In this document: one piece after another, positions 3,541 to 63,700 of the stretch | Layout: each line of letters starts with the position of its first letter | How positions within the stretch are numbered: the stretch's first letter is position 1 | Assembly (NCBI GenBank): GCA_041660505.1 | Contig: JBAZWG010000001.1 | Location: 541,776-605,775 of the forward strand | Direction: 5' to 3' | Source of the DNA: Minisyncoccota bacterium | GTDB lineage: Bacteria; Patescibacteriota; Minisyncoccia; Phycocordibacterales; JACRKE01 | DNA: 64,000 bases | Program-made: the position numbers and the translations under genes | Notes under the pieces: generated by a model | Databases searched by the model: none | Told to the model about the DNA's origin: nothing | What the model saw: the letters and a program-made list of their open reading frames with translations, nothing else

Positions 3541-4101
3541 TTATTTTGACTTAGAAGGTTCAACTTTAGGCACCTTAAAGGTTGAACCTTCTAAGTCGCC
3601 CAAAATTTGAAGCAGTGCCGTCATGATAGTCATGGGTGATGGCGGGTCGCCCGGGATTTCATAATCTACCGGTATGGCACCGCGCGCACCGTCGAGTACG
3701 GCGTAGGAGCCTTTGAATATTCCGCCATTAATAGCGTCATCGCCGACCGCGACAACAATCTTCGGAGTCGGTGTTGCTTCATAAGAATGCATAAGCCCGT
3801 CATACATATTGCGAGAGACCGGGCCTGTCACCATCAGCATATCGGCATGGCGCGGGGAGGCGACGAAGTGAATGCCGAAACGTTCAACGTCATAATAAGG
3901 ATTGCCCAGAGCCACGAGCTCCTGCTCCTCTGCGTTGGTCCCGCCGGCGGTCACGACGCGGATGGCCAAGGAGCCATTAAAGATTTTTTTGACCTTAGCG
4001 CTTAGTTCCGCGCCGGCAGTGTGATATTCAGGAGGTAAGCCCATATCAACCGATTCTATCAGTCTGGGGGTTTTTATGATTTTGGAAATTAAATTAAGCA
4101 T
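3541..4101 (-). CDS. NuoB-like hydrogenase small-subunit homologue lacking all Fe-S ligating cysteines (Ehr-type)
   Basis: 186 aa with NuoB/Oxidored_q6-like spacing (..RHADMLMVTGPVS.., ..AVGDDAINGG.., ..IPGDPPSP..). The protein contains zero Cys. The canonical CCxxE, GxCxxxGG and GCPP positions read GG, D and D. The last ~18 codons overlap a palindromic repeat (copy A1). Confidence 0.7.
   Translation of the reverse strand: MLNLISKIIKTPRLIESVDMGLPPEYHTAGAELSAKVKKIFNGSLAIRVVTAGGTNAEEQELVALGNPYYDVERFGIHFVASPRHADMLMVTGPVSRNMYDGLMHSYEATPTPKIVVAVGDDAINGGIFKGSYAVLDGARGAIPVDYEIPGDPPSPMTIMTALLQILGDLEGSTFKVPKVEPSKSK
3548..3597. repeat. REPIN-like palindromic doublet, family A copy A1 (inside 3' coding end of NuoB-like gene)
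   Basis: gacttagaaggttcaac / 16-nt loop / gttgaaccttctaagtc forms a perfect 17-bp inverted repeat built on the AAGGTTCAACCTT / AAGGTTGAACCTT motif. Confidence 0.75.
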
Positions 4102-5633: not shown

Positions 5634-5677
5634 GGTTTCAAAGGTTCAACCTTATGCATCCAAAAGGTTGAACCTTA
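5632..5677. repeat. REPIN-like palindromic doublet, family A copy A2
   Basis: aaggttcaacctt (5641..5653), 10-nt loop, aaggttgaacctt (5664..5676). The two halves are reverse complements of each other. Confidence 0.75.
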
Positions 5678-5689
5678 AAAAACAAAATT

Positions 5690-9545: not shown

Positions 9546-9884
9546 TTACAGCCTGCGAAGGGCGCGGTTGAGGCTTTTCATTGCCTCGACGAGCTCTTTC
9601 GAGAGGCGGTACTCTTTTGCCGCCTGGTACTGCTTGATCGGGACATCCAGCGCCGTTGCGATGTCCTCGACCGTAGTCAAACCTTTCGCCTTGTGGGCGT
9701 ACCGAGTTGCTTCGAAGGCGATGTCCTCGCCGGCGACGCGGAGTTTGACGAGCTCGTCCCGGGCTGCGAGCATCTGCTTGAAGGTGCCGAGGTCGTTGTT
9801 CTTTGTCCCCGGCCCAGCAGCGCCGCTTTCGCAGGAGTACACGAAGTCCTTGACGGACTCCTTGAGAATCTTTGTGTCGAACAA
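9546..9884 (-). CDS. Hypothetical protein, paralogue 2 of a tandem pair in a high-GC island
   Basis: 112 aa. Shares the block ..LRVAGEDIAFEATRYAHKAKGL..EDIATAL..QYQAA..ELVEAMKSLNRAL with the upstream ORF. GC content is clearly higher than in surrounding genes. Confidence 0.5.
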   Translation of the reverse strand: MFDTKILKESVKDFVYSCESGAAGPGTKNNDLGTFKQMLAARDELVKLRVAGEDIAFEATRYAHKAKGLTTVEDIATALDVPIKQYQAAKEYRLSKELVEAMKSLNRALRRL

Positions 9885-9894
9885 TCCGGCCTCC

Positions 9895-10242
9895 TTAGAC
9901 TAGAGCCCTGTCGAGGCACTTGATGGCCTCGACAAGCGCGTTCGTGACAGAGAAATTGCCCTTCTTCGAATATTGGACCATCACGACACCGACGGCCTCG
10001 GCGATCTCGTCGAGATTCTTCAAGGGCATCTTGATGCCCTTGGCCGTCTCGAACGGGATGTTCTCGCCGACGAATCGGATCTTGATGATCTCGATCCGGA
10101 TCTCGGCGATCCTGCCATAGGTCAGTATGTTGCGACTCCTGTCGCCGGGGATGATGGCCCCATCGGCCACCGCCTCGGTGACCCATGCCGTCAGCTCCTT
10201 GAGTTTCCTCGTGTCCACTCCTCCTCCTTCAGGCAGAGACAA
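9895..10242 (-). CDS. Hypothetical protein, paralogue 1 of a tandem pair in a high-GC island
   Basis: 115 aa. Block ..IRFVGENIPFETAKGIKMPLKNLDEIAEAVGVVMVQY..ALVEAIKCLDRAL is homologous to the 9546..9884 product. Confidence 0.5.
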   Translation of the reverse strand: MSLPEGGGVDTRKLKELTAWVTEAVADGAIIPGDRSRNILTYGRIAEIRIEIIKIRFVGENIPFETAKGIKMPLKNLDEIAEAVGVVMVQYSKKGNFSVTNALVEAIKCLDRALV

Positions 10243-24557: not shown

Positions 24558-25492
24558 TGTCGCTCAAGCTCGTAGATATTCATACCCACCCGCAATTCGC
24601 GGCTTATACGGAAGACCGTGACGCTATTATGCAACGTGCCGAAGAGGCAGCGGTGGGGCAGATCGTTGTGGGGACGCAAAAGGACACTTCACAGGCCGCC
24701 ATAGATCTTGCGCATAAATATCCGCATACTTGGGCAACGGTCGGTCTGCACCCGATACACACCACCAAGTCTTATCATGACGCATATGAACTAGAAAATT
24801 CCAACCTCACCCCTGCACCCCTCTCCGACGGAGAGGGGAAACTCTCGGAAAATTCCCCCTCCCTTTCGGGGAGGGGGTTAGGGGGTGAGGTGGTGAAGCC
24901 CTTCACTTCTCGCGGAGAGGTTTTCGATTATGACTATTACAGAAAATTGGCTACAGACGAGAAGGTGGTCGCTATTGGTGAATGCGGCTTGGATTATTTC
25001 AGACTCGATGAAGACACCAAACAGATACAGATGAATGTCTTCGATGCACAGATTGCGCTGGCGAACGAAGTGGAGAAGCCTATTATGCTTCATATTCGTG
25101 CGGGCAAGCATGCCGGCAGTGGCACGGCCTATCAAGACGCTTTCCATATGCTGCACTCAAAATCAAAAGTTTCGGCCAACGTGCATTTCTTTGCCGGCGA
25201 TATCGAAACTGCTAAAAGATTTTTGTCTATAGGCTGCACGCTATCATTCACCGGCGTCATTACTTTTACCCACGACTATGACGAAGTGGTAAAGTATGTG
25301 CCGATAGAGTCTATGATGGTCGAAACCGACGCGCCTTACATTACGCCAGCGCCATATCGGGGCAAACGCAACGAATCTTCTTATGCCAGGCTTATCGCTG
25401 CCAGGGTTGCCCTCATAAAAGGTATAAGCATAGAACAGGCAGAAGCCAAGCTCCTAGATAACGCCATACGACAGTTCAGGTTGAAATTTTAG
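24558..25492 (+). CDS. tatD: TatD-family metal-dependent hydrolase with an in-frame palindromic-element insertion
   Basis: Start chosen as ATG 24558 (MSLKLVDIHTHPQF), directly after the metG stop. TatD motifs present. The ~28-aa insert LTPAPLSDGEGKLSENSPSLSGRGLGGEVVKP is encoded by GC-rich repeat copy G1. Confidence 0.8.
24806..24890. repeat. GC-rich palindromic element, family G copy G1 (in-frame inside tatD)
   Basis: tcacccctgcacccctctccgacggagagggg ... ccccctccctttcggggagggggttagggggtgagg. Nested inverted repeats. Shares the cacccctg.cccctc.ccgaaggagaggg core with copies at 37731, 44076 and 63570. Confidence 0.7.
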
Positions 25493-28305: not shown

Positions 28306-28644
28306 ATGAATAACGTACAACAATTAAAGAGGCGAGTCATGCGACGGGTGTATGCATTTTGGGTTTTGCGTACCGCATATCACTCCCTGTTGCTTAAAGG
28401 CGTTGCAATTTCGCTATTGTTTATTGAGTTAAGAGAATTGGTATCACTTAGAAACGTGATCACAAACACTCTACAGTCCGGAGGCATAGATCGCATGGTG
28501 TCTTATCTCGAATACTCTTTCGCTCACACTCAAGCGTCAGTACAAGTAACTCTAGCGCTTGTCGGTGTTCTGGCTGTTTGGTTCGTGGTTGACGCGATAC
28601 GAAAAGATTTTGTCGTGCCGGTTCAGCAATTCGCGCTCCGCTAG
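28306..28644 (+). CDS. Hypothetical small membrane protein (possible anti-sigma factor partner)
   Basis: 112 aa, two hydrophobic segments, immediately downstream of the ECF sigma gene. Confidence 0.35.
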   Translation: MNNVQQLKRRVMRRVYAFWVLRTAYHSLLLKGVAISLLFIELRELVSLRNVITNTLQSGGIDRMVSYLEYSFAHTQASVQVTLALVGVLAVWFVVDAIRKDFVVPVQQFALR

Positions 28645-28652
28645 ACGCCCAG

Positions 28653-28688
28653 AGGTTCGACCTTAAGCACCAAAAAGGTCGAACCTCA
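28653..28688. repeat. REPIN-like palindromic doublet, family A copy A3 (variant GGTTCGACC)
   Basis: gaggttcgacctt / 10 nt / aaggtcgaacctc. Located between the membrane-protein gene and the recA 3' end. Confidence 0.7.
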
Positions 28689-28695
28689 AAGGTGA

Positions 28696-29763
28696 TTATT
28701 CTTCGTCAGTCGGTTCCTTATCGTCATCAGCCGATTCTGACGCGGGGGATTTCATATCTAGGGCGCCTTTTTCTACGTTCTCTATAATCTTTTTCTTTAA
28801 TTCGTCACGGACTTTGTGATTTTCTTTAAGGAATGTTCTGGTGGCGTCATAACCGCGGCCTAGCTTGAGATCGCCGTACGCATATGAGGAACCACTCTTC
28901 TGGATTAAGCCTTGCTTCTCGGCAAGGGCGATGATCTCGCCTTCGGGGGAAATACCTTCGTTGTAGATAATGTCGAACTCGGCGAATTTGAAGGGGGCGG
29001 CCACTTTGTTCTTGACCACCTTGGCGCGGGTGCGCGAGCCCACAACCTCTTCGCCTTTCTTGATCTGGGCAATGCGGCGAATGTCGATACGAACCGATGA
29101 ATAGAACTTGAGCGCCTTACCGCCCGGGGTCGTCTCGGGGTTACCGAACATGACACCGATCTGCATTCTGATCTGATTTATAAATATGACGACAGTCTTG
29201 CTCTTGGCGACGATGGCAGTCATTTTGCGCAAAGCTTGCGACATTAGACGCGCCTGCTTGCCGACGTGGAAGGCGCCCATATCGCCCTCAATCTCGTCTT
29301 TTGGCGTAAGCGCCGCGACGGAGTCTATAACGAGCACATCAATCTGTCCGGAGCGAATGAGGCTGTCGGCAATCTCGAGCGCTTGCTCGCCGTTGTCCGG
29401 CTGGGAAATGAGGAGGTCGTTAATTTTCACACCAAGCTTCTTGGAGTATTCCGGGTCCATGGCGTGTTCGGCGTCGATGAAGGCACAGACCCCGCCTTTC
29501 TTCTGCGCTTCGGCAATCACGTGCAGAGACAGAGTAGTCTTGCCTGATGATTCTGGACCGTATATCTCGATGATACGACCACGGGGGAGTCCGCCGACTC
29601 CGAGTGCCAGGTCGAGGCCTAGTGAACCGGTCGGAACGGCGTCAACGTCCACATGTGGCTTCTCACCTAGACGCATAATAGAGCCCTCGCCGAACTTGGT
29701 CTGAATAGCTTTGATCGCATTCTCAACTCCCGCCGAAGGTCGTTCGGTTACTTTTTTTGCCAT
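28696..29763 (-). CDS. recA: Recombinase RecA
   Basis: 355 aa. Walker [11 protein letters not shown]1/L2 loops, acidic C-terminus. Confidence 0.95.
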
Positions 29764-37606: not shown

Positions 37607-37689
37607 TCTTAAATTCTTACCCCTTGCTTGTGACTTGGGATAAGACTTCAAATATCGATTCACAGGTCTAGAACCTAGTGATAGATACC

Positions 37690-37727
37690 AAAACCCCCTC
37701 CGACGGAATGTCGGAGGGGGTTTTGTG
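37690..37727 (+). terminator. Rho-independent terminator after the giant surface-protein gene
   Basis: aaaaccccctccgac-ggaat-gtcggagggggtttt gives a 15-bp stem, then ttttgtgttt. Confidence 0.6.
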
Positions 37728-37730
37728 TTT

Positions 37731-37822
37731 GGCCCCACCCCTGCCCCTCCCCGAAGGAGAGGGGGAAACCGAAATCTGAATTTTCTTCCCTCTCCTTCGG
37801 GGAGGGAATGAGGGAGGGGCTA
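37731..37822. repeat. GC-rich palindromic element, family G copy G2
   Basis: ggccccacccctgcccctccccgaaggagaggggg ... ccctctccttcggggagggaatgagggagggg. Confidence 0.7.
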
Positions 37823-44075: not shown

Positions 44076-44110
44076 GCCCCACCCCTGACCCCTCCCCCAA
44101 GGAGAGGGGA
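44076..44110. repeat. GC-rich palindromic element, family G half-copy G3
   Basis: gccccacccctgacccctcccccaaggagagggga, immediately after the rplL stop. Confidence 0.6.
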
Positions 44111-44119
44111 AAGATAAAA

Positions 44120-44153
44120 GAGAAAATCCGCCTTCGGGCGGATTTTCTCTTTG
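44120..44153 (+). terminator. Rho-independent terminator after rplL
   Basis: gagaaaatccgcc-ttcg-ggcggattttctc gives a perfect 13-bp stem, then tttgag. Confidence 0.7.
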
Positions 44154-46713: not shown

Positions 46714-47555
46714 GTACTCCATCCAGATATGCAAAAAATCCTCAACAAAAAACGCAGCGGTTAAGGAGATTCGCATCTGTGCGTACTCTTAAATCGCCAC
46801 AAGCGATTTTTTTTGTCCCAGAGGGACAATCCGCCGGTGAGGCGGGTGAGAGATTCATCAGAACGACCCGTAACTTGAAAATTTAATTCCATCGCATCAC
46901 TGGTGTTAACCAATTTTATTGGGGTCTACCATGATGAAGATGGGCAGGAAAAAGAAAGAAAAAAACAATTAAGCAAAGACGGTTTTCATATTTCCTAATA
47001 GGAAATATAAGAGCATATGGTGGATGCCTAGACTTTGAAAGGCGATGAAGGACGTAGCATGGCTGCGATAAGCTTCGGGGAGGTGCCTAGCAACCTTTGA
47101 TCCGGAGATGTCCGAATGGGGAAACCTTCATGACGATGAGTCATGAGACTCGTACTAATTCTACGAGATCGCACACCCTGGGAAGTGAAACATCTCAGTA
47201 CCAGGAGGAAAATAAACAAAATGTATTCGAATGTGGGATGTGGTGCGGTATAGTCCGCAGTACATCCTACATTCGTTGTATTCCCTAAGTAGCGGCGAGC
47301 GAAAAGGGAGAAGCCCAAACCGAATTTTTTCGCAAGAAAAACTTCGGTGTTATAAGGCAGTGATATAGAATTTATTCTAGTAGAGTTACAAAACAGCATA
47401 ATAATCGAATCGACTGGAAAGTCGAGCCACAGAAGGTAATGGCCCTGTAGATGAAATTATGTTGTCTCTAATTACTGTTCTTGAGTACCCCGGGACATGA
47501 TAAGCTTGGGGGAAGTCAGCGGCACTAACCGCTAAGGCTAAATACTTTCAAAGAT

Positions 47556-47594
<39 letters not shown>

Positions 47595-48309
47595 GCCCGG
47601 TGAGGGCGTTGAAATAAACCTGAAACCATATGTTTACAAGGAGTCGGAGCGGATGGCGCAAGCCATGCCGCGACGGCGTGCCTATTGAAGAATGAGCCAA
47701 CGAGTTTATATGTACTGCTAGGCTAATCGCGTTAACCCGCGAGGAGTCATAGGGAAACCAAGTGTTAATAGCGCGTCACCCTGTTTACAGGGGTGTAGTA
47801 CATGTAAGACCCGAAGCCAGAGCGAGCTTACCATGAGCAGGGTGAACCATCGAGAAATCGATGGGGAGGCCCGAACCCGTATGTCGTACAATGCATTGGG
47901 ATGACTTGTGGTAAGAAGTGAAAAGCTAATCGAGCCTGGTAATAGCTGGTTCTCTCCGAAATAGCTTTTGGGTTAGCGTCACGTGTTCCATGTGGGGGTA
48001 GAGCACTGGAAGGTCTCGACAGGTCGAAAGATCGCGAGACCTATCAAACTCCGAATACCACATGCTAAAAGCGTGGCAGTTAGACTGCGGGGGCTAAGCT
48101 CCGTTGGTCAAAAGGGGAACAGCCCAGATCTCAATCTAAGGTCCCTAAATCTACGTTAAGTGCATCACAAGGAGGTGAAGTTTCGTTGACAATGAGGAGG
48201 TTGGCTTAGAAGCAGCCACCCTTGAAAGAAAGCGTAATAGCTCACTCATCGAGAGACTTCGCGCCGAAGATAATCGGGGCTCAAACGTAGTACCGAAGGT
48301 GAGGACTTG

Positions 48310-48388
48310 AGGACTTCATTTTTGCAAATTCAGAAGGTTCAACCTTTTGAATGCCTAAGGTTGAACCTTGGGGCAAAAATGAAGTCCT
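48310..48388. repeat. REPIN-like palindromic doublet, family A copy A4, at the tip of an extended 23S helix (H45 region)
   Basis: aggacttcatttttgc ... gaaggttcaacctt / ttgaatgcct / aaggttgaacctt ... gcaaaaatgaagtcct. The repeat doublet is enclosed by a further 16-bp inverted repeat. Confidence 0.65.
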
Positions 48389-49190
48389 TGAGTGGTAGGA
48401 GAGTTTTCGTGTCCGCAGTGAAGCCTAAGGGGTGACCCGTGGTGGAGCGACACGAAGTACGAATGTTGGCACAAGTAACCGCAATAGCGTTTAGAACACG
48501 CTACGCCGAAAGACTAAGGTTTCCTTCGCGATGTCAATCAGCGAAGGGTTAGTCGGTCCTAAGGGAATGACGAATGTCGGACCCGATGGAATACAGGTTA
48601 ATATTCCTGTACTTTTTTGTAGTCTGATGAAATGACGAAGTGTAGTATGCATGGCGCATTATGGATTTGTGTTTGCGCATCCGCCTTGATTCCCAGGAAA
48701 ATCCGGGAGTCTGTCTTTAATGACGACGGTGAAGGTGTGTGAAGATTCCGCGATTCGTCAAAGGAGATCATGCAAAGCGCGCTTCCAAGAAAAGTTTCTA
48801 AAGATAACTACAGAAAAACCGTACCGTAAACCGACACAGGTAGTCAGGTCGAGCAGACCAAGGCGAACGAGTGAGTGCATCCCAAGGAACTCGGCAAAAA
48901 AGCGGCCGTAACTTCGGAATAAGGCCTGCCCACGCAAGTGGGCTACAACAAAAGTTTCTCTGGCGACTGTTTATCAAAAACACAGCTCCCTGCGAACTCG
49001 TAAGAGGATGTATAGGGGGTGACGCCTGACCAATGCCAGAAGGTCAACCGGTGACCGTGTGCGCATCACACTGCGTGTGATGCAGTTTAAATATTTAAAT
49101 ATTTAAATTTGCATCGCGCTTGGCGCGATGCGTATGCTGTTCGTCGTAAGCCCTGGTGAATGTCGGCAATAACTATAATTGTCCTAAGGT

Positions 49191-49510
49191 TTTCGGATGG
49201 TCGCAAGACAATTCGAAAAGAATTGGGACAATTAGAGTACTGTGTAGATAAATTAGTCATAATAAGTCATTAATGCAAGTCAAAGACGATAGCGCTACCT
49301 TATCTAGCTATATGCTGTAGAGTCTGTACATTCATTTATACAGATGAGCAGCAGGGAAGTCGCCTCTACGGCGACCCCTCAGAGACTGAACGCTGGACAT
49401 GAAATTCTCCTCACGGAGAAGATTATGAAGATATAGTCCGTACTCGTAAGCGATTACGAGAGTTTTGTAGAAATACAAAACCCATGTCGCAAGGCATTGG
49501 TAACATATAG
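49191..49510 (+). mobile_element. Group I intron in 23S rRNA (E. coli ~1917-1931 region), no homing-endonuclease ORF
   Basis: Inserted between exon gtcctaaggT and agcgcaattccttgtcggg. The 5' exon ends in U and the intron ends in G. Contains the P7-region elements cagagactgaacgctgg (R-like) and aagatatagtcc (S element, identical to the Tetrahymena consensus). Confidence 0.6.
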
Positions 49511-50113
49511 AGCGCAATTCCTTGTCGGGTAAGTTCCGACGTGCACGAATGGCGTAACGACTGGAGAACTGTCTCGGGATGTTGCTCGGTGAAAATACAG
49601 TGCCGGTGAAGATGCCGGCTACCTGCAGATAGACGAAAAGACCCCAGGAGCTTTACTGTAGCTTGATATTGATTATACGTTTTGTCTGCGTAGCATAGAT
49701 GGGAGGATTTGAGAGTATGATTTCGGTTGTGCTTGATCCGTCAGTGAAATACCATTCTTATGAAGTGTATAATCTAACCTGCAAGGATAAACCTTGCGGA
49801 GACAGTATCTGGTAGGCAGTTTTAGTGGGGCGCTATCCTCCTAAAGAGTAACGGAGGAGTTTATTAAGGTTGGCTAGCCGCGAATGGAAACCGTGGCGAT
49901 AGTGTAATGGCACAAGCCAGCTTAACTGCAAGACGTACATGTCGAGCAGATGCGAAAGCAGAACATAGTGAACCGACCATGCGCATTAGAGGCGGTGGAA
50001 GATTATCGGACAAAAGCTACCCTGGGGATAACAGGCTGGTACTGCCCAAGCGTCCATAGCGACGGCAGTGTTCGGCACCTCGATGTCGGCTCATCTTATC
50101 CTGGGGCTGGAGA

Positions 50114-50146
<33 letters not shown>

Positions 50147-50173
50147 AAGATACGCGAGCTGGGTTCAGACCGT

Positions 50174-50503
50174 ATAGCACCTAAATTTAAATATTTAAAT
50201 TTTGAAATATTTAAACAGTGGGTTTTATACCGTCTGAACCCTCGAGAATATGATATACAACAAACCACATCATACTGTTTACTTGAATCACGGCGGTCGT
50301 AGATAGAGATATCTATGATAGAGCTGACTTATATCGGTGGAGTCCCATGCGGATCACACCTAGGGAATTTCTAATATTTAAATATTTAAACATTTAAATT
50401 TTGGACGACCCGTAGAGACTAAACGTCAGCCATCTTCATTCATAATTTATTGTGAGAAAGATGAAGCTATAGTCCATGCCCGTAGCAATACGGTGAATAC
50501 ATG
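50174..50503 (+). mobile_element. Group I intron in 23S rRNA (E. coli ~2593-2600 region), no homing-endonuclease ORF
   Basis: Inserted between exon gggttcagaccgT and cgtgagacagg. Ends in G. Contains agactaaacgtc (R element) and aagctatagtcc (S element). Confidence 0.6.
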
Positions 50504-50865
50504 CGTGAGACAGGTTGGTCTCCTATCTACTGCAGGCGTTGAACATTGAGAAGATTTACTCCTAGTACGAGAGGACCGGAGTGAACTGACCGCTGGTCTA
50601 CCTGTTGTCCTGCCAAGGGCACCGCAGGGTAGCTAAGTCGGGAAAGGATAATCTCTGAAAGCATCTAAGAGAGAAGCCAACTTCAAGATTAATGTTCGTT
50701 ATGAGACTCGTGAGAGATGATCACGTTGATAGGTGTTCGGTGTAAGCATCGCAAGATGTTGAGCCAAGACATACTAATAAGTCCATTCCTATTAGGAAAT
50801 ATGGAAGTCGTCGAAACTTAAATTATTTTTTCTTTTAAAACCTGCAAATATAAAGTTGAATGTTT

Positions 50866-50978
50866 AGTTTTGGTGGTTTGTCGGAGGGGTCACACCTGTT
50901 CTCATTCCGAACACAGAAGTTAAGCCCTCTTGAAGCGATGGTACTCCTAACGGGGGAGAGTAGCTAGCCGCCAGAACT
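50866..50978 (+). rRNA. rrf: 5S ribosomal RNA
   Basis: ggtggtttgtcggaggggtcacacctgttctcattccgaacacagaagttaagccc...gggggagagtagctagccgccagaac matches the 5S consensus helices and loops. Confidence 0.85.
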
Positions 50979-51843: not shown

Positions 51844-52965
51844 ATGCAAATAAAGGCTTTTTTGCGCGGAATTGACTGGGTATTATTCTTTGCAACATTG
51901 CCAATCGTCGGTGCGGGTATCCTGACAATGAACGCATTCACCGGCCAGAATTACTTTGCTATCCGGCAGATTATTTGGCTTCTCGCCTCCATTTTTGTTT
52001 TTTTTATTGCAACTAGGATAGACTGGCGTTTCGCCAAGCGGCCGCGAATACTTGTTGCTAGTTATCTTTTTCTAAATCTATTATTGTTGGGGCTCTTCGC
52101 CGCAGCAAAAATCAAAGGAGCCTCAAGTTGGTTTCATTTCGGTATTTTTGCCATAGAGCCGAGTGAATTCGTAAAGATCCTCCTTATCATAATTCTGGCG
52201 AAATACTTTCACCGCCGTCACATAGAAATAGCGAACTTTAAGCACATATTCATCTCCGGGCTCTATGCGGCTGTGCCACTCGTTCTCGTGCTCCTTCAGC
52301 CGGATTTCGGTTCCGCTATCATTATTCTGATAATCTGGTTCGGTATGACCATGGTCTCTGGTATATCGAAGAAGCATTTTTTTACTCTTATCGGCTCCGG
52401 AATCCTCGCTTTTTTACTTCTCTGGCTTTTCATTTTTAAACCATATCAGAAGAACAGAATTCTAAACTTCATCGACCCCCTTCGCGACGTGCGCGGATCC
52501 GGGTACAATGCATTCCAATCTCAAATTGCTGTTGGCTCGGGGCAAATACTGGGTAAAGGCGTTGGTTTCGGCACACAGTCCCGACTTAAATTCTTACCAG
52601 AATATCAGACAGATTTCATTTTTGCGGCTTTCGCAGAAGAATGGGGATTCATGGGCGTATCACTTCTTCTTATCTGCTACGGGATTATCGCCTGGCGTAT
52701 TATTGCGAACGCTTTCGTTAGCGGAACCAATTTTGAGACGTTGTTCTGCGCCGGTTATGGTATTTTTATTATGGCTCATTTCGCAATAAATGCAGGAATG
52801 AACGTCGGCCTCTTGCCTGTCACCGGTATCACCTTGCCCTTTATGAGCTACGGCGGTACTCACCTGATAGTGGAGTATTTAGGTCTTGGTATGATAATGA
52901 GCATGCGTCGGTACGCCCGCGCCACTCACCGGGATAACATGAAGAATGAATTTTTGGGGATTTAA
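51844..52965 (+). CDS. ftsW: SEDS-family peptidoglycan glycosyltransferase FtsW/RodA
   Basis: 373 aa, 10 TM helices, conserved loop GSGYNAFQSQIAVGSGQILGKGVGFGTQS. Confidence 0.85.
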   Translation: MQIKAFLRGIDWVLFFATLPIVGAGILTMNAFTGQNYFAIRQIIWLLASIFVFFIATRIDWRFAKRPRILVASYLFLNLLLLGLFAAAKIKGASSWFHFGIFAIEPSEFVKILLIIILAKYFHRRHIEIANFKHIFISGLYAAVPLVLVLLQPDFGSAIIILIIWFGMTMVSGISKKHFFTLIGSGILAFLLLWLFIFKPYQKNRILNFIDPLRDVRGSGYNAFQSQIAVGSGQILGKGVGFGTQSRLKFLPEYQTDFIFAAFAEEWGFMGVSLLLICYGIIAWRIIANAFVSGTNFETLFCAGYGIFIMAHFAINAGMNVGLLPVTGITLPFMSYGGTHLIVEYLGLGMIMSMRRYARATHRDNMKNEFLGI

Positions 52966-52974
52966 CCCGCATTT

Positions 52975-53013
52975 GAGGTTCGACCTTTCAGATGTCCTAT
53001 AAGGTCGAACCTC
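52975..53013. repeat. REPIN-like palindromic doublet, family A copy A5
   Basis: gaggttcgacctt / tcagatgtcctat / aaggtcgaacctc. Lies immediately after the ftsW stop. Confidence 0.7.
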
Positions 53014-53058
53014 TGGCATGTGTTGCTATAAATTTTCAGTAGGTATAGAATTAAAGTA

Positions 53059-57335: not shown

Positions 57336-58508
57336 ATGAAAGACAAAGAAATCAAAGACTTGATAAAAGCGGAAACAAAGAGGCAGAAGTCGGTAGTGAA
57401 TCTAATCGCGTCAGAAAATTACGTTTCTAAAGATGTACTCGAAGCACTAGGCTCGGTGCTGACAAATAAATATGCCGAAGGATATTCTGGCGCGCGTTAT
57501 TATGGCGGGAATATTATTTCGGATAAAGTCGAAGACTTGTGTAAAGCGCGAGCGCTCAAGACATTCGGACTTAAAGATACTGAATGGGCGGTCAATGTAC
57601 AGGCGCTCTCCGGTTCGCCGGCGAACCTTGCAGTCTATCTGGCGCTAGTAGAGCCGGGCGCGAAAGTGATGGGTATGTCGCTCGCACACGGCGGACACTT
57701 AACTCACGGGCATAAGGTCTCAATGACGGGTAAGATTTGGCATCAGGTGCCCTACGGCGTGTCTAAAGAAACGGAACAGCTTGACTATGACGAGCTGATG
57801 GAGCTGGCTAAACGCGAACAGCCCAAGCTTATCATTGCCGGCTTCACGGCCTACCCGCGGGTCATAAACTTCAAGAAATTCCGCGAGATTGCCGACGCCT
57901 GTGGGGCGTATCTCATGGTAGACATGTCGCACTTCGCCGGTCTTGTGGCCGGCGGTGCTTATTCGTCACCGTTCGACTATGCAGACATTGTAACGACAAC
58001 AACGCACAAGACATTGCGCGGTCCACGCTCGGCGCTTATCTTCAGTAAAATGGATGAGCGAGAATTATATAAAAAAATAGACAAAGCCGTTTTCCCCGGA
58101 CTCCAAGGCGGGCCACATCTGAATCAGATTGCTGCGGTAGCAGTAACCCTTAAAGAGGCGCAGAGCAAAGAATTCAAAAAGTATGCCGCGCAGGTAATTA
58201 ATAATACAAAAGTTCTTGCCAATGAACTCACCAAACTCGGCTGGCGAATAGTCTCTGGCGGTACAGACACGCACCTTGCGCTCGTTGATACGTGGCTCGG
58301 TGGTAAAGGTATTGGTGGCAAAGAGGCGAGCGAGAGATTAGAAAAAGCGGGGATTATCGTTAATAAAAATACCATCCCCTTTGACCCGCGTTCGCCGGTA
58401 GACCCATCGGGTATCCGAATAGGTATGGCGGCTGAGACGACCAGAGGAGCAAAAGAAAAAGATGCGAAGAAGATCGCGCAGAAGATTGATAAAGTCTTGC
58501 GCTCGTAA
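57336..58508 (+). CDS. glyA: Serine hydroxymethyltransferase
   Basis: 390 aa. Motifs NLIASENYVSKDVLEALGSVLTNKYAEGYSGARYYGG and PLP-lysine region TTTTHKTLRGPR. Confidence 0.9.
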   Translation: MKDKEIKDLIKAETKRQKSVVNLIASENYVSKDVLEALGSVLTNKYAEGYSGARYYGGNIISDKVEDLCKARALKTFGLKDTEWAVNVQALSGSPANLAVYLALVEPGAKVMGMSLAHGGHLTHGHKVSMTGKIWHQVPYGVSKETEQLDYDELMELAKREQPKLIIAGFTAYPRVINFKKFREIADACGAYLMVDMSHFAGLVAGGAYSSPFDYADIVTTTTHKTLRGPRSALIFSKMDERELYKKIDKAVFPGLQGGPHLNQIAAVAVTLKEAQSKEFKKYAAQVINNTKVLANELTKLGWRIVSGGTDTHLALVDTWLGGKGIGGKEASERLEKAGIIVNKNTIPFDPRSPVDPSGIRIGMAAETTRGAKEKDAKKIAQKIDKVLRS

Positions 58509-58562
58509 AAAGCGCAGATGTGTGGTATAATTTATAACCGATGCTAGAAGGGAGGTGATATG

Positions 58563-58700
58563 TGACCAAAGAGGTGGCCTACATCTTGACCCTCGAAATC
58601 GAGGGCGAGATTCAGACGGGTCGGGTAGAGATTGTGACGGCCGCACAAGCCTACCCCGAGCTCGCGCAGTCCGAAAAAGATTTTGCCGAGCTCTCCTAAT
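58563..58700 (+). CDS. Small hypothetical acidic protein (45 aa) in a high-GC patch
   Basis: GTG start preceded by SD gggagg (5-nt spacing). Extended -10 element tggtataat at 58524..58532. Not in the ORF track (<60 aa). Confidence 0.3.
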
Positions 58701-58779
58701 CCCTCGCCTTGCGGTTCTCGTCTCGCCAGGTGGCAGACGGGACCGCTTTGTTTTTAGCCTAATTTTGTTACACTACCAA

Positions 58780-58815
58780 TGTTGAACCTTGGGCATATAG
58801 AAGGTTAAACCTTCT
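58780..58815. repeat. REPIN-like palindromic doublet, family A copy A6 (degenerate)
   Basis: gttgaacctt / gggcatatag / aaggttaaaccttc, just upstream of folD. Confidence 0.55.
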
Positions 58816-58822
58816 AAAATAT

Positions 58823-59722
58823 ATGATTATATCCGGAGACCAAATAGCTGAAGAGATTAGATATGAGCTTACACAAGAGGTGAGCCGTATGAATGCGCCG
58901 CTTACGCTTGTAATTGTCCAAGTGGGTGAGCACCCGGCTTCTTCGCAATATGTTCGCAAGAAAATGGCCTTTGCCAATTCGCTCGGCATTAATGCGGAAC
59001 CCAAGAAATTTGATGTAGGCATTACGGAAGAAGCGCTGAAAAAAGAACTTGCGCACATCGTGGCCGACATGAATCACGACCCGTATGCTTTTACCGGTAT
59101 CATTGTGCAGTTGCCGTTACCGAAAGAACTTGATACAGAAAAGATCCTCGCAGAGATTCCAGCCGAGAATGATGTCGACTTGCTCTCGCAAGAAGCGATA
59201 GAAAAGTTTAACACCGGCACGTCACGAATATTGCCGCCAGTTGTTGGTGCTGTTGCCGAGATATTAAGGCGCGCGCATGTGTCAGTTGCCGGCAAGAAGG
59301 CGGTCGTCGTCGGCCGAGGCAAGCTTGTCGGTAAACCTGCGGCGGTTTGGTTGGAACACGAAGGTGCGCAAGTTGTAATTGCCAACAGATCGACAGAAGA
59401 TTTGGCTAAGCTTACGCGAGAAGCCGATATTATTATCACCGGTGTCGGTTCGGCGAAATTGATTACGCCGGCAATGGTCAAGCAAGGCGTCATTCTCATT
59501 GATGCCGGCACAAGTGACTCGTCCCGAGCGCAGTCGAGGGAGTCGGAAGACCGCCCCTCGAGTTCCTCGGGGCAACGAGCGGAGCTCGTTGGCGATGCCG
59601 ACCCGGCTTGTGCGCCCAAATGCTCAATATTTACCCCCGTCCCCGGCGGTGTCGGCCCAATGACTGTAGCTATGCTCTTCAAAAACCTGATAGAACTCGC
59701 CAAAGCCCAGAACTCTTTTTAA
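58823..59722 (+). CDS. folD: Bifunctional methylenetetrahydrofolate dehydrogenase/cyclohydrolase with a GC-rich in-frame insertion
   Basis: 299 aa. FolD motifs throughout (..GKKAVVVGRGKLVGKP..ITPVPGGVGPMTVAML..). An extra ~24-aa Ser/Arg-rich insert (SDSSRAQSRESEDRPSSSSGQRAE) between IDAGT and LVGDAD is encoded by GC-rich hairpin-containing DNA at 59516..59585. Confidence 0.85.
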   Translation: MIISGDQIAEEIRYELTQEVSRMNAPLTLVIVQVGEHPASSQYVRKKMAFANSLGINAEPKKFDVGITEEALKKELAHIVADMNHDPYAFTGIIVQLPLPKELDTEKILAEIPAENDVDLLSQEAIEKFNTGTSRILPPVVGAVAEILRRAHVSVAGKKAVVVGRGKLVGKPAAVWLEHEGAQVVIANRSTEDLAKLTREADIIITGVGSAKLITPAMVKQGVILIDAGTSDSSRAQSRESEDRPSSSSGQRAELVGDADPACAPKCSIFTPVPGGVGPMTVAMLFKNLIELAKAQNSF

Positions 59723-59726
59723 AAAA

Positions 59727-59745
59727 TTGGAAGTTTCACTTCCAA
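59727..59745. repeat. Palindrome TTGGAAGT-N5-ACTTCCAA copy P1 (upstream of transposase gene; loop inverted relative to P2/P3)
   Basis: ttggaagtttcacttccaa. Two more copies sit inside the downstream gene at 59945..59963 and 60236..60254. Confidence 0.7.
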
Positions 59746-59763: not shown

Positions 59764-60450
59764 ATGCACATAAATTTAGAGTTTGCCGAGGAAGAGTACT
59801 ACCATGTTTACAATAGGGGCGTAGAAAAACGCAGTATTGTGGTCGATGAAAAAGATTCCGCCCGATTTATACAAAGTTTGATCCAGTTCAATTCGCTCAA
59901 GCCGATAGGGAGTATTTTCGAAAACACTTACGAATACAAGAAAATTGGAAGTGAAACATCCAAAGAACTAACAAAGAAGAATGAAGCCCTTGTAGAAATT
60001 ATCGCATATTGCTTAAATCCCAATCATTTTCACATGATACTTTCACCAGTTGTTGAAGATGGTATTAGTAAGTTCATGCATCGTCTGGGAACCGGTTATA
60101 CGAAATATTTTAATAAGAGGCACAAACGCTCCGGGTCGCTTTTTCAGGGATTGTTTAAAGCGAAACACCTGGAAGATAACGACTATTTACTCCATGTGAG
60201 CGCCTATGTAAACCTAAACGACCGCGTGCATAAAATTGGAAGTGAAACTTCCAAAGTTTCAAAATTGGTGCGGAAGAGTTACGGGGAGTATGAAGCGGGG
60301 AGTGGCGGATTCTGCCAGAAAGATGTTATACTTGATCAGTTTAAGAATAGAAAAGAGTATACGGATTTCTGTGAAGATTCACTCGAACTTATGCACGAGA
60401 CAAAAGACGAGCAAAATGAACTAAAAGATCTTAATTTATTAGAATACTAA
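59764..60450 (+). CDS. IS200/RAYT-like HUH tyrosine (Y1) transposase homologue carrying two in-frame palindrome insertions
   Basis: 228 aa from ATG 59764. The ORF-track N-terminal extension overlapping folD is rejected. COG1943-like blocks YYHVYNRGVEKRSIV.DE.D, the HUH motif NPNHFHMIL, GSLFQGLFKAKH, and DYLLHVSAYVNLN (candidate catalytic Tyr). A TATAAT lies at 59751..59756. Confidence 0.6.
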   Translation: MHINLEFAEEEYYHVYNRGVEKRSIVVDEKDSARFIQSLIQFNSLKPIGSIFENTYEYKKIGSETSKELTKKNEALVEIIAYCLNPNHFHMILSPVVEDGISKFMHRLGTGYTKYFNKRHKRSGSLFQGLFKAKHLEDNDYLLHVSAYVNLNDRVHKIGSETSKVSKLVRKSYGEYEAGSGGFCQKDVILDQFKNRKEYTDFCEDSLELMHETKDEQNELKDLNLLEY

Positions 60451-63484: not shown

Positions 63485-63700
63485 CGACGGCGAGGTGAGT
63501 CCTCCGGCAACCTGCCCGACATGCCAGGTCGTGTGGCAGGCGGGAGGCGGAGGTCTCACCTCAGACGACCAGCCCCTCCCTTTGTCCCTCCCCGAAGGAG
63601 AGGGAATGACTTCAGGCGTCAAGGTCTCTCCTCGAGGAGGAGCAAGGCGACGGGAAGAGGTGAGTCCTTGACGACATTAGACCTGTTAATAACTTATTGG
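63485..63700. repeat. GC-rich composite repeat block after secF containing family G copy G4 (63570..63608)
   Basis: ggcgaggtgagtcctcc ... gaagaggtgagtccttg direct repeats, ctgcccgacatgccaggtcgtgtggcaggcggg inverted repeat, and cagcccctccctttgtccctccccgaaggagagggaatg. Confidence 0.6.

Follow-up and report, generated by a model that had tools for sequence, protein, structure and literature searches.

An in-frame insertion in a Minisyncoccota folD gene, probably made of two inverted copies of a short REP-like palindromic unit

Introduction

The folD gene of a Minisyncoccota bacterium carries an additional, GC-rich and serine/arginine-rich segment, which raises the question of where this DNA came from and how the gene could take it up and remain in frame. 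The gene lies at 58823..59722 on the plus strand of a stretch of 64,000 nt (contig JBAZWG010000001.1, positions 541,776 to 605,775 of the forward strand), which was analyzed as a whole and is called the window here; positions given without a contig refer to it. A first-pass annotation of this DNA had traced the segment to a palindromic repeat element, inserted in-frame in a loop that is usually short. This core idea is supported by the orthologs of folD, by a covariance model of related repeats and by the presence of the same unit in unrelated genes. Our analysis indicates that the extra DNA probably consists of two inverted copies, 12 nt apart, of a short GC-rich palindromic unit (~21-30 nt), which resembles sequences of the repetitive extragenic palindromic (REP) type and belongs to a family that is widespread across phyla.

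Results

The folD coding sequence was recognized from the list of open reading frames (ORFs) together with matches in Pfam and the PDB, and its product of 299 aa is identical to the NCBI protein MFA6006709.1 (719,008-bp contig). Both FolD domains were detected, PF00763 (THF_DHG_CYH, 3.4e-25) and PF02882 (THF_DHG_CYH_C, 5.5e-45), with bit scores of 89 and 153, and FolD structures in the PDB matched the product with a best value of 2.5e-41. The catalytic and the NAD(P)-binding domains are intact around the insert, and the reading frame is open across it, with neither a stop codon nor a frameshift.

The flagged segment extends from 59516 to 59585 on the plus strand and encodes the peptide SDSSRAQSRESEDRPSSSSGQRAE, corresponding to residues 231-254 of FolD. 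It is a composite of a left unit, four host codons, a right unit and a 3' extension. Its GC content is 0.70, compared with 0.50 in the rest of folD and 0.475 in the whole window. The segment forms a long imperfect hairpin: folded as single-stranded DNA, the 70 nt reached -20.4 kcal/mol (z = -3.64), a stability that none of 200 dinucleotide shuffles attained, and RNA folding of the 101-nt context resulted in z = -2.84. The GC content and the single-strand folding confirm the earlier description of a GC-rich, hairpin-forming segment, and the string ccgcccctcgagttcctcgggg quoted there was found at 59551-59572. GC richness alone is not diagnostic: the conserved Gly/Ala-rich motifs of nuoH and nuoL score equally, and since most intragenic GC peaks in GC and hairpin scans of the whole window turned out to be conserved motifs of this type, GC content was dropped as a criterion. 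A blastn-short search of the insert against the window revealed no match longer than 11 nt and hence no paralogous copy.

The five closest relatives of the protein (P0002-P0006) have 281 aa each and share 61-78% identity with the FolD of the window (alignments A1 and A5). The order epimerase, glyA, (epimerase), folD, secD, secF is common to the window and the contigs of these relatives, and P0002-P0006 are therefore regarded as orthologs. Their loop reads DAGTS-ESEGKAS-GDAD, without the insert, which results in a net excess of 18 aa or 54 nt in the window gene. Among the 120 best homologs, 104 allowed a measurement of loop length; the modal length was 9 aa (85 proteins), and the 27 aa of the window FolD represent the longest loop among them. 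In solved FolD structures the same loop has about 7 residues in bacterial proteins and about 13 in human MTHFD2. The homolog loops and the structures thus bear out the statement that canonical FolDs have only a few residues at this position, and the multiple alignment that had been suggested as a check showed orthologs with short loops that lack the 54 nt.

Block boundaries were taken from a DNA alignment of folD with four orthologs (alignment A2). The left insertion block (59516..59539), absent from the four ortholog DNAs, comprises 24 nt or eight codons (DSSRAQSR) and holds one unit in reverse orientation, i.e. on the minus strand. The right block (59552..59581, plus strand), likewise absent from the orthologs, comprises 30 nt or ten codons (RPSSSSGQRA) and holds one forward unit of the variant seen in low-GC genomes. 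Between them, at 59540..59551 on the plus strand, four host codons are retained, GAG TCG GAA GAC (E S E D), which were identified by their match to the orthologs: the 12 nt GAGTCGGAAGAC are identical in 11 of 12 positions to GAGTCGGAAGGC (ESEG) of the ortholog P0003/L005. The insertion of 24 aa described in the first-pass annotation is thus real as an extra segment; it amounts to a net 18 codons in two blocks (24 + 30 nt) and not to one block of 24 aa.

The core of the left unit, TCGTCCCGAGCGCAGTCGAGGGAG, was located at 59519-59542, with a placement that is ambiguous by 1-3 nt, and reads CCCTCGACTGCGCTCGGGACGAG on the minus strand. Its CCCGAGCGCAGTCGAGGG agrees with the family core CCCGAGCGAAGTCGAGGG in 17 of 18 positions and is the sole match in the window at up to three mismatches (expected 0.04). 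The core of the right unit, CCCTCGAGTTCCTCGGGGCAA at 59555-59575, represents the variant CCCTCGAGTNCCTCGGGRCAA of the family core. Compared with the complement of the canonical arm, the right arm shows one deletion and one substitution, and 21 of 24 nt of the unit are identical to a unit at the same loop position of another FolD (P0043/L127). Left and right block are reverse-complementary, though imperfectly (CCCGAG-CGCAG-TCGAGGG versus CCCTCGA-GTTC-CTCGGGG), and therefore the retained host codons form the loop of a hairpin. On the 3' side, a perfect palindrome (inverted repeat I2; 59573..59591, plus strand) with 8-nt arms of 100% complementarity, CAACGAGC-GGA-GCTCGTTG, overlaps the outer stem of the unit together with the codons ELV, which stand in place of the KAS of the orthologs. 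The sequence ACGAGCGG at the 3' edge of the insert is the usual 3' flank of family copies. The peptide across the insert junction is predicted from the DNA as VKMGDPSTSSGQAK.

Related copies were collected with an arm-pattern scan (CCCGAGNNNNNTCGAGGGN{6,30}CCCTCGAN{2,6}CTCGGG) of one genome per species in 185,579 species, which returned more than 120 loci, often with several copies per genome. The taxa among the matches listed include Sphingomonadales, Archangium and other Myxococcota, Thermoanaerobaculia, Lentisphaeria, Thiotrichaceae and others. They make up a coherent family of hairpins, which we call family A; its consensus consists of cgttCGTCCCGAGCGAAGTCGAGGG, a variable spacer of 15-30 nt and CCCTCGACTTCGCTCGGGACGaacg. 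The folD arms fit this consensus at positions that the pattern left free, namely the CG-AG bulge, the 5' tcgt, the CGCCCC that precedes the right arm and the 3' acgagcgg. A covariance model (R1), built from 56 family copies of other phyla with the window excluded, scored 59509-59585 at 28.5 bits (E about 4e-6) and found no match in 47 kb of the relatives' DNA. A degenerate motif of the solo unit gave two matches in the window against 0.03 expected, and both lie in folD.

These matches bear directly on the idea that the segment arose locally in folD by replication slippage or template switching, without any mobile or repeated element. Within the 70 nt, CTCG and CGAG occur four times each and GA(C/G)TCG three times, no flanking duplications are present and the window holds no other copy, all of which would fit such an origin. 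Neither arm copies neighboring folD sequence, and the arms match hundreds of unrelated loci and genes in other organisms, also at unconstrained positions, so that we consider a local origin very improbable. Equally little credit is given to an artefact, in which a chimeric assembly or an error at the read level would have put foreign GC-rich DNA into folD. The allele comes from one contig and the left unit is of a type common in GC-rich soil bacteria; on the other hand, both block ends keep the frame and the four intervening host codons, whereas a chimera would not respect codon boundaries, and similar cassettes in FolD, DnaK, SecF and others stem from independent assemblies of several projects. 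Slippage and artefact are both contradicted by the external matches together with the codon-exact boundaries.

Long-loop FolD homologs were inspected at the DNA level. In the Sungbacteria-type FolD P0107/L128, the stretch ESEG-PSTGLGTS-KIV is encoded by CCCTCGACTGGGCTCGGGAC; the codons GAA TCA GAA GGT are followed by CCC TCG ACT GGG CTC GGG ACA AGT and then by AAA ATC GTC GGA GAT, so that a solo unit of 24 nt stands straight after the host ESEG codons. The cassette is present in all six members of the Sungbacteria FolD cluster (records in NCBI, JGI, ENA and Logan, with 9 contigs for one of the members), and a Sungbacteria FolD (P0101), the only relative named at the phylum level among the matches listed, shares 42-46% identity with that of the window. 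The FolD P0043/L127 mentioned above has a solo unit with the same one-base deletion relative to the canonical arm as the right unit of the window, and P0007/L129 carries a degenerate arm at the left site.

Did the two arms enter folD together? A single event is conceivable, in which a complete hairpin of ~70 nt (arm, own loop, arm) replaced about 16 nt of host codons and the likeness of the spacer to ESEG is a coincidence or due to microhomology. Elsewhere the family typically occurs as paired arms with a spacer of 15-30 nt, GAGTC or GACTC is found in 23 of 121 Allosphingosinicella-type spacers (expected 5.6) as it is in the folD spacer, and the spacer GAGTCAGAACGCCCC of L126 is comparable to GAGTCGGAAGACCGCCCC of folD. 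In contrast, the folD spacer is identical to ortholog codons in 11 of 12 positions, and its 14 nt between the arms are below all 116 sampled family spacers. Moreover, two other FolDs of the Parcubacteria type have a solo right unit directly after host ESEG/NGG codons and no left arm, and the middles of the folD arms differ in subtype (CGCAG versus the complement of GTTC), so they are not a matched pair. We therefore favor two insertion events, because the spacer is host sequence, solo right units occupy the same site in other FolDs and the arms differ in subtype; a single event is possible but seems unlikely to us.

The unit is not confined to folD. A metagenome scan with the variant arm CCCTCGAGTNCCTCGGGNCAA resulted in 25 loci, many of them in-frame in genes. 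In low-GC contigs the variant unit inside long ORFs is always read as CCC/TCG/AGT/NCC/TCG/GGG/CAA, which translates to PSSxSGQ. Nine cassette genes were verified by Pfam domains that surround or adjoin the insert: DnaK, IF2 (G domain), LepA, SSB (tail), the TopA Zn-ribbon, tRNA_bind, two PKD/Ig proteins and DUF5671. A reverse-oriented copy in a loop of SecF adds exactly 7 aa (LPRGTRG) in comparison with the SecF of the window and of L006. The uniform frame in unrelated genes suggests that the cassette is translated and that selection on the protein acts as a filter.

In a search for DnaK, at least 22 of 120 Patescibacteria homologs (P0121-P0240; L153 10032-11948; L210, L211, L212) had the peptide PS[ST]xSGQA at residue 108, and the nearest named cassette-bearing DnaKs belong to Taylorbacteria, Kaiserbacteria, Zambryskibacteria and Paceibacterota. 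Homologs at ~73% identity read VKMGD-KW... and lack the eight codons. Two DnaKs have an additional cassette in the C-terminal tail (PSTDSGQG / PSTSSGQG), and four DnaK cassettes analyzed at the DNA level are recognizable variants of the unit. Longer degenerate inserts are found at residue 108 in P0153 and P0180.

The recurrence could reflect a selected function, with the cassette or its hairpin kept as an mRNA structure acting in translation or decay, or as a protein interaction loop, which would explain the same-site recurrence and the constant frame. The unit indeed sits at the same codon boundary in three FolD lineages, the DnaK cassette is retained across many Patescibacteria lineages, and all forward copies in the verified genes share one frame. 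Third-codon positions in four DnaK cassettes are also somewhat more conserved than in the flanks (~5/8 versus ~10/24), in what is a tiny sample. Against this stand the functionally unrelated host proteins and sites, close orthologs that do well without the cassette and the disorder of the loop in the predicted structure; furthermore, survivorship alone would favor a benign Pro/Ser/Gly/Gln peptide. A selected function is thus possible but unsupported, and we regard it as improbable.

Units are rare per genome, with only two additional copies in ~150 kb of cassette-bearing metagenome contigs. Intergenic units (L143 2176-2250 and 3330-3380; L131 2085-2140; L132 7190-7250) lie in the loop of a larger terminator-like hairpin, for example GGCCCTGAAAGATTGC-[unit]-GCAATCTTTCAGGGC followed by a T run. 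This position would fit a single-stranded or extruded DNA target. The two inverted units of L143, 1.1 kb apart, were considered as a REPtron and rejected, as no transposase lies between them and the units are in loops of terminator-like hairpins.

The canonical arm was also detected in 54 viral contigs of 35-72% GC, mostly as a solo arm, which is uninformative about a vector; the right-arm variant had no match in viral contigs. In the viral contig L183 (301-3992, GC 0.38) and in L164, five canonical arms lie on the same strand at irregular spacing, each within a longer repeated context (...tactttccacTCCCGAGCGAAGTCGAGGGactactgcctac...). This suggests that in some low-GC genomes or phages the canonical arm is also part of larger composite repeats. 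Rfam contains no family for the insert or for the copies of other phyla, the best matches being far under the gathering scores, and an origin from rRNA was not supported, as neither the 23S and 5S genes of the window nor Rfam gave a match. A literature search returned no match for the sequence strings, including the REP surveys PMC3733652 (text and supplements) and PMC12306157, no published name for family A and nothing on such cassettes in candidate-phyla bacteria.

To assess the consequence for the protein, FolD was modeled with AlphaFold2 from an alignment of 70 sequences. The model reached a mean predicted local distance difference test (pLDDT) score of 94 and a predicted template modeling (pTM) score of 0.90; pLDDT dropped to ~65 only in the two 10-residue blocks of 231-250, and residues 251-260 averaged 86. 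The model also keeps the flanking strands, residues 223-227 ahead of the insert and the strand that follows it, and the loop position is also variable among solved FolD homologs. On the basis of this model, the insert is best read as a flexible excursion at the loop tip of an otherwise unchanged FolD fold.

A Y1_Tnp gene of the IS200 type (59764..60450; PF01797, 6.4e-9) starts 179 nt downstream of the segment and was considered as the mobilizer of the folD units. It is accompanied by three copies of an AT-rich palindrome, AAATTGGAAGT-N3-ACTTCCAA, one upstream (59724-59745) and two in-frame within the gene (59943-59963 and 60233-60254), where each encodes KIGSETSK. The gene also adjoins folD in L005, a relative free of the insert, with 81% identity in the first 72 aa. 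The candidate was rejected on both grounds: the palindromes that flank and interrupt the gene are unrelated to the units, and the gene is present in a relative without the insert.

The first-pass annotation had counted at least five coding sequences with palindromic segments in the 64 kb. This holds for tatD and the transposase gene, which do carry such segments; they do not form one family, and the GC-rich stretch in the NuoB-like gene, a putative insertion, matched neither the unit patterns of family A nor model R1. In tatD (24558..25492), an in-frame insert of ~50 aa (about 24795-24900) spreads the 253 positions of the TatD_DNase profile over 302 residues. It consists of GC-rich hairpins, CCCCTCTCCGACGGAGAGGGG and CCCCCTCCCTTTCGGGGAGGGGG, of a second family distinct from the folD units, including the perfect hairpins CCCCTCTCC-GAC-GGAGAGGGG and CCCCCTCCC-TTTC-GGGGAGGGGG. 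Long intergenic hairpins of this second family (CCTCCCCGAAGGAGAGGG ... CCCTCTCCTTCGGGGAGG) lie downstream of genes at 37685-37819, 44083-44150 and 63573-63654. The family-A model detects the second family weakly (37732-37819 at 31.6 bits), and the two may be distantly related, given the shared architecture CC..CGAAG..GAGGG. In-frame palindromic segments are thus a feature of this genome and derive from at least three unrelated families, represented by folD, tatD and Y1_Tnp.

A further palindrome, based on GAGGTTCGACCTT / AAGGTCGAACCTC, occurs at gene boundaries (3541-3600, 5637-5687, 28641-28700, 52956-53015 and 58778-58815). The copy just upstream of folD is kept in L006 (74% over 143 nt running into the folD start), and the element may be a terminator or a promoter-associated repeat. 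The glyA gene in the adjoining region (57336-58822) is only ~50% identical to the glyA of syntenic relatives, compared with 64-85% for the neighboring genes, and the second epimerase gene, which the relatives have between glyA and folD, is missing in the window. Its place is taken by a GC-rich ORF of 48 codons (about 58558-58705), which has a good Shine-Dalgarno sequence, and by a terminator hairpin (about 58706-58750). The interval is suggestive of foreign DNA having replaced the local sequence right beside the folD insert; an interpretation of the GC-rich spacer as a relic of the missing epimerase gene was dropped, as no similarity was found.

Elsewhere in the window, the 23S rRNA gene (46994-50976 region) is lengthened to 3805 nt by two group I introns (49184-49460 and 50275-50495), with the 5S gene at 50869-50976, and no tRNA gene was detected in the 64 kb. 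A region of 59% GC with dense strong hairpins (9551-10195) overlaps an Arg/Ser-rich ORF on the minus strand (9677-10186) that has no Pfam match.

Discussion

The folD segment is an insertion relative to the orthologs, both of its arms belong to family A, in-frame copies recur in other genes and the predicted fold of the product is intact. We propose that each unit was inserted at the tip of a beta-hairpin loop on the protein surface as whole codons, which would be translated as SSRAQSR and PSSSSGQ; insertion of whole codons would have kept folD in frame, and the product would display a flexible Ser/Arg/Gly-rich loop. On single-stranded DNA or on mRNA, the units could pair into a hairpin of ~60 nt with the host codons ESE-D in its loop. 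The units presumably are or were mobile, and the second of two insertion events may have been attracted to the first or tolerated beside it: two units 12 nt apart, with none elsewhere in the 64 kb, suggest that insertion is favored beside a unit or hairpin or that tolerant sites are few. The constant reading frame would be explained by the survival of only those insertions that are in-frame and encode a benign peptide in a gene-dense genome. On the most economical view, these are non-autonomous REP-like units that would persist in such genomes only at sites where neither the length (21, 24 or 30 nt) nor the peptide does harm, and we infer that the insert is carried along as a neutral passenger and is not a functional module.

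Several observations weigh against the proposal that folD took up copies of such a repeat. No target-site duplication is present at the insert and the unit boundaries are ambiguous by 1-3 nt. The search for flanking direct repeats suggested in the first-pass annotation found GATGCCG at 59501 and 59594 as the sole pair, which was rejected, since it represents host Asp-Ala codons and reads GACGCCG in insert-free orthologs. The insert lengths vary (21, 24 and 30 nt) in a way that a defined transposable unit does not usually show, and shuffled sequences fold as well as the single units do (z +0.45, -0.74 and -0.81). The window contains no further copy of family A according to blastn-short, the 18-mer core, model R1, the unit patterns and the solo motif, and the insert-bearing allele is known from a single assembly, with the database search returning the identical protein on the source contig only. 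Since the search patterns were taken from the insert itself, identity at the specified positions is circular, and therefore weight as evidence is given solely to the positions left free, to the independent model and to how coherent the matches are. Finally, no mobilizing enzyme is linked to the units: a search of 35 low-GC or related loci revealed no convincing Y1 gene beside a unit. By analogy with known REP systems, our best guess for the mobilizer would be a single-strand transposase of the HUH/Y1 type, similar to the REP-associated tyrosine transposases (RAYTs), acting in trans.

Among known systems, the Rickettsia palindromic elements (RPEs) come close. They are described as palindromic, non-coding repeats that are inserted in-frame in conserved genes of reduced genomes, translated and compatible with the fold (Ogata et al. 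2000; passages in PMC10969869 and PMC3733652). According to the part of PMC10969869 that deals with them, they have about 100-150 bp and tens of copies per genome, in families largely confined to Rickettsia. As far as these descriptions go, the folD units are alike in being an in-frame, translated, fold-compatible palindromic repeat inside a conserved gene, and are set apart by their size of 21-30 nt (7-10 codons; 70 nt as a composite), their cross-phylum core and their number of two in 64 kb.

The likeness to REPs and REPINs lies in short GC-rich palindromic units that are often arranged as inverted (head-to-head) pairs forming larger hairpins. Unlike REP/REPIN-RAYT systems, the units are neither high-copy nor extragenic here, and the neighboring Y1_Tnp gene is not flanked by them. 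Intragenic REPs exist, and CGTC REPs lack a dedicated transposase (Di Nocera et al. 2013, PMC3733652). Families 1-4 of the CGTC REPs are defined by a stem of 8-9 bp, a loop of 4-5 nt and a CCA-like tail after the CGTC tag (PMC3733652). The left folD unit shares the CGTC tag and the Sungbacteria unit has TGTC, but the 8-9 bp stem, the 4-5 nt loop and the CCA tail are absent; a single unit forms a stem of at most 4-5 bp (GTCCC/GGGAC) around a loop of ~12 nt.

Miniature inverted-repeat transposable elements, or MITEs, fused in-frame with host ORFs include QMITE1 of Coxiella, intragenic enterobacterial repetitive intergenic consensus (ERIC) sequences and Correia elements (PMC10969869). Inverted arms, the lack of own coding capacity and the occasional in-frame extension of host proteins are shared features. 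MITEs, however, have 50-500 bp, terminal inverted repeats and target-site duplications and derive from insertion sequences, whereas for the folD units neither a duplication nor a parent insertion sequence was found and solo arms occur. In yeast mitochondria, short GC-rich palindromic mobile clusters populate an AT-richer genome and are sometimes in-frame, as in var1; they belong to another domain of life and another sequence family, and nothing suggests a shared mechanism. The folD unit falls into no named family, because the geometry of the CGTC REPs fails, it is five times shorter than RPEs and it shows neither a target-site duplication nor a link to a RAYT. It is best called a unit that works like an intragenic REP or RPE.

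In-frame colonization by palindromic repeats is classically a Rickettsia phenomenon; here it concerns a Patescibacteria-type genome, and the unit, far smaller in size, has its core in common with hairpin repeats of Sphingomonadales, Myxococcota and other phyla. The cassette in DnaK, IF2, LepA, SecF, SSB and FolD provides a searchable marker, PS[ST]xSGQA / CCCTCGAnnnnCTCGGG, which bears on how repeats move without a linked transposase, on why a single frame survives and on which share of the 'lineage-specific insertion' noise of candidate phyla is derived from repeats. In practical terms, cassettes inflate the apparent divergence in marker-gene alignments, and the same 20-mers in unrelated genomes can seed chimeric assemblies.

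A broader reading is that ultra-short GC-rich hairpin cassettes of 7-10 codons, shared across phyla, colonize essential genes of Patescibacteria. They would insert between codons with a preference for one frame, and would return to the same loop tips, as in FolD (three times) and in DnaK (at residue 108 and in the C-terminal tail). Such behavior would point to an undescribed site- or structure-directed mode of single-strand insertion or to a selected role of the RNA or protein. We consider this doubtful on the present evidence; if it were true, such cassettes would have expanded loops in these reduced proteomes quite generally, a source of change that has been overlooked.

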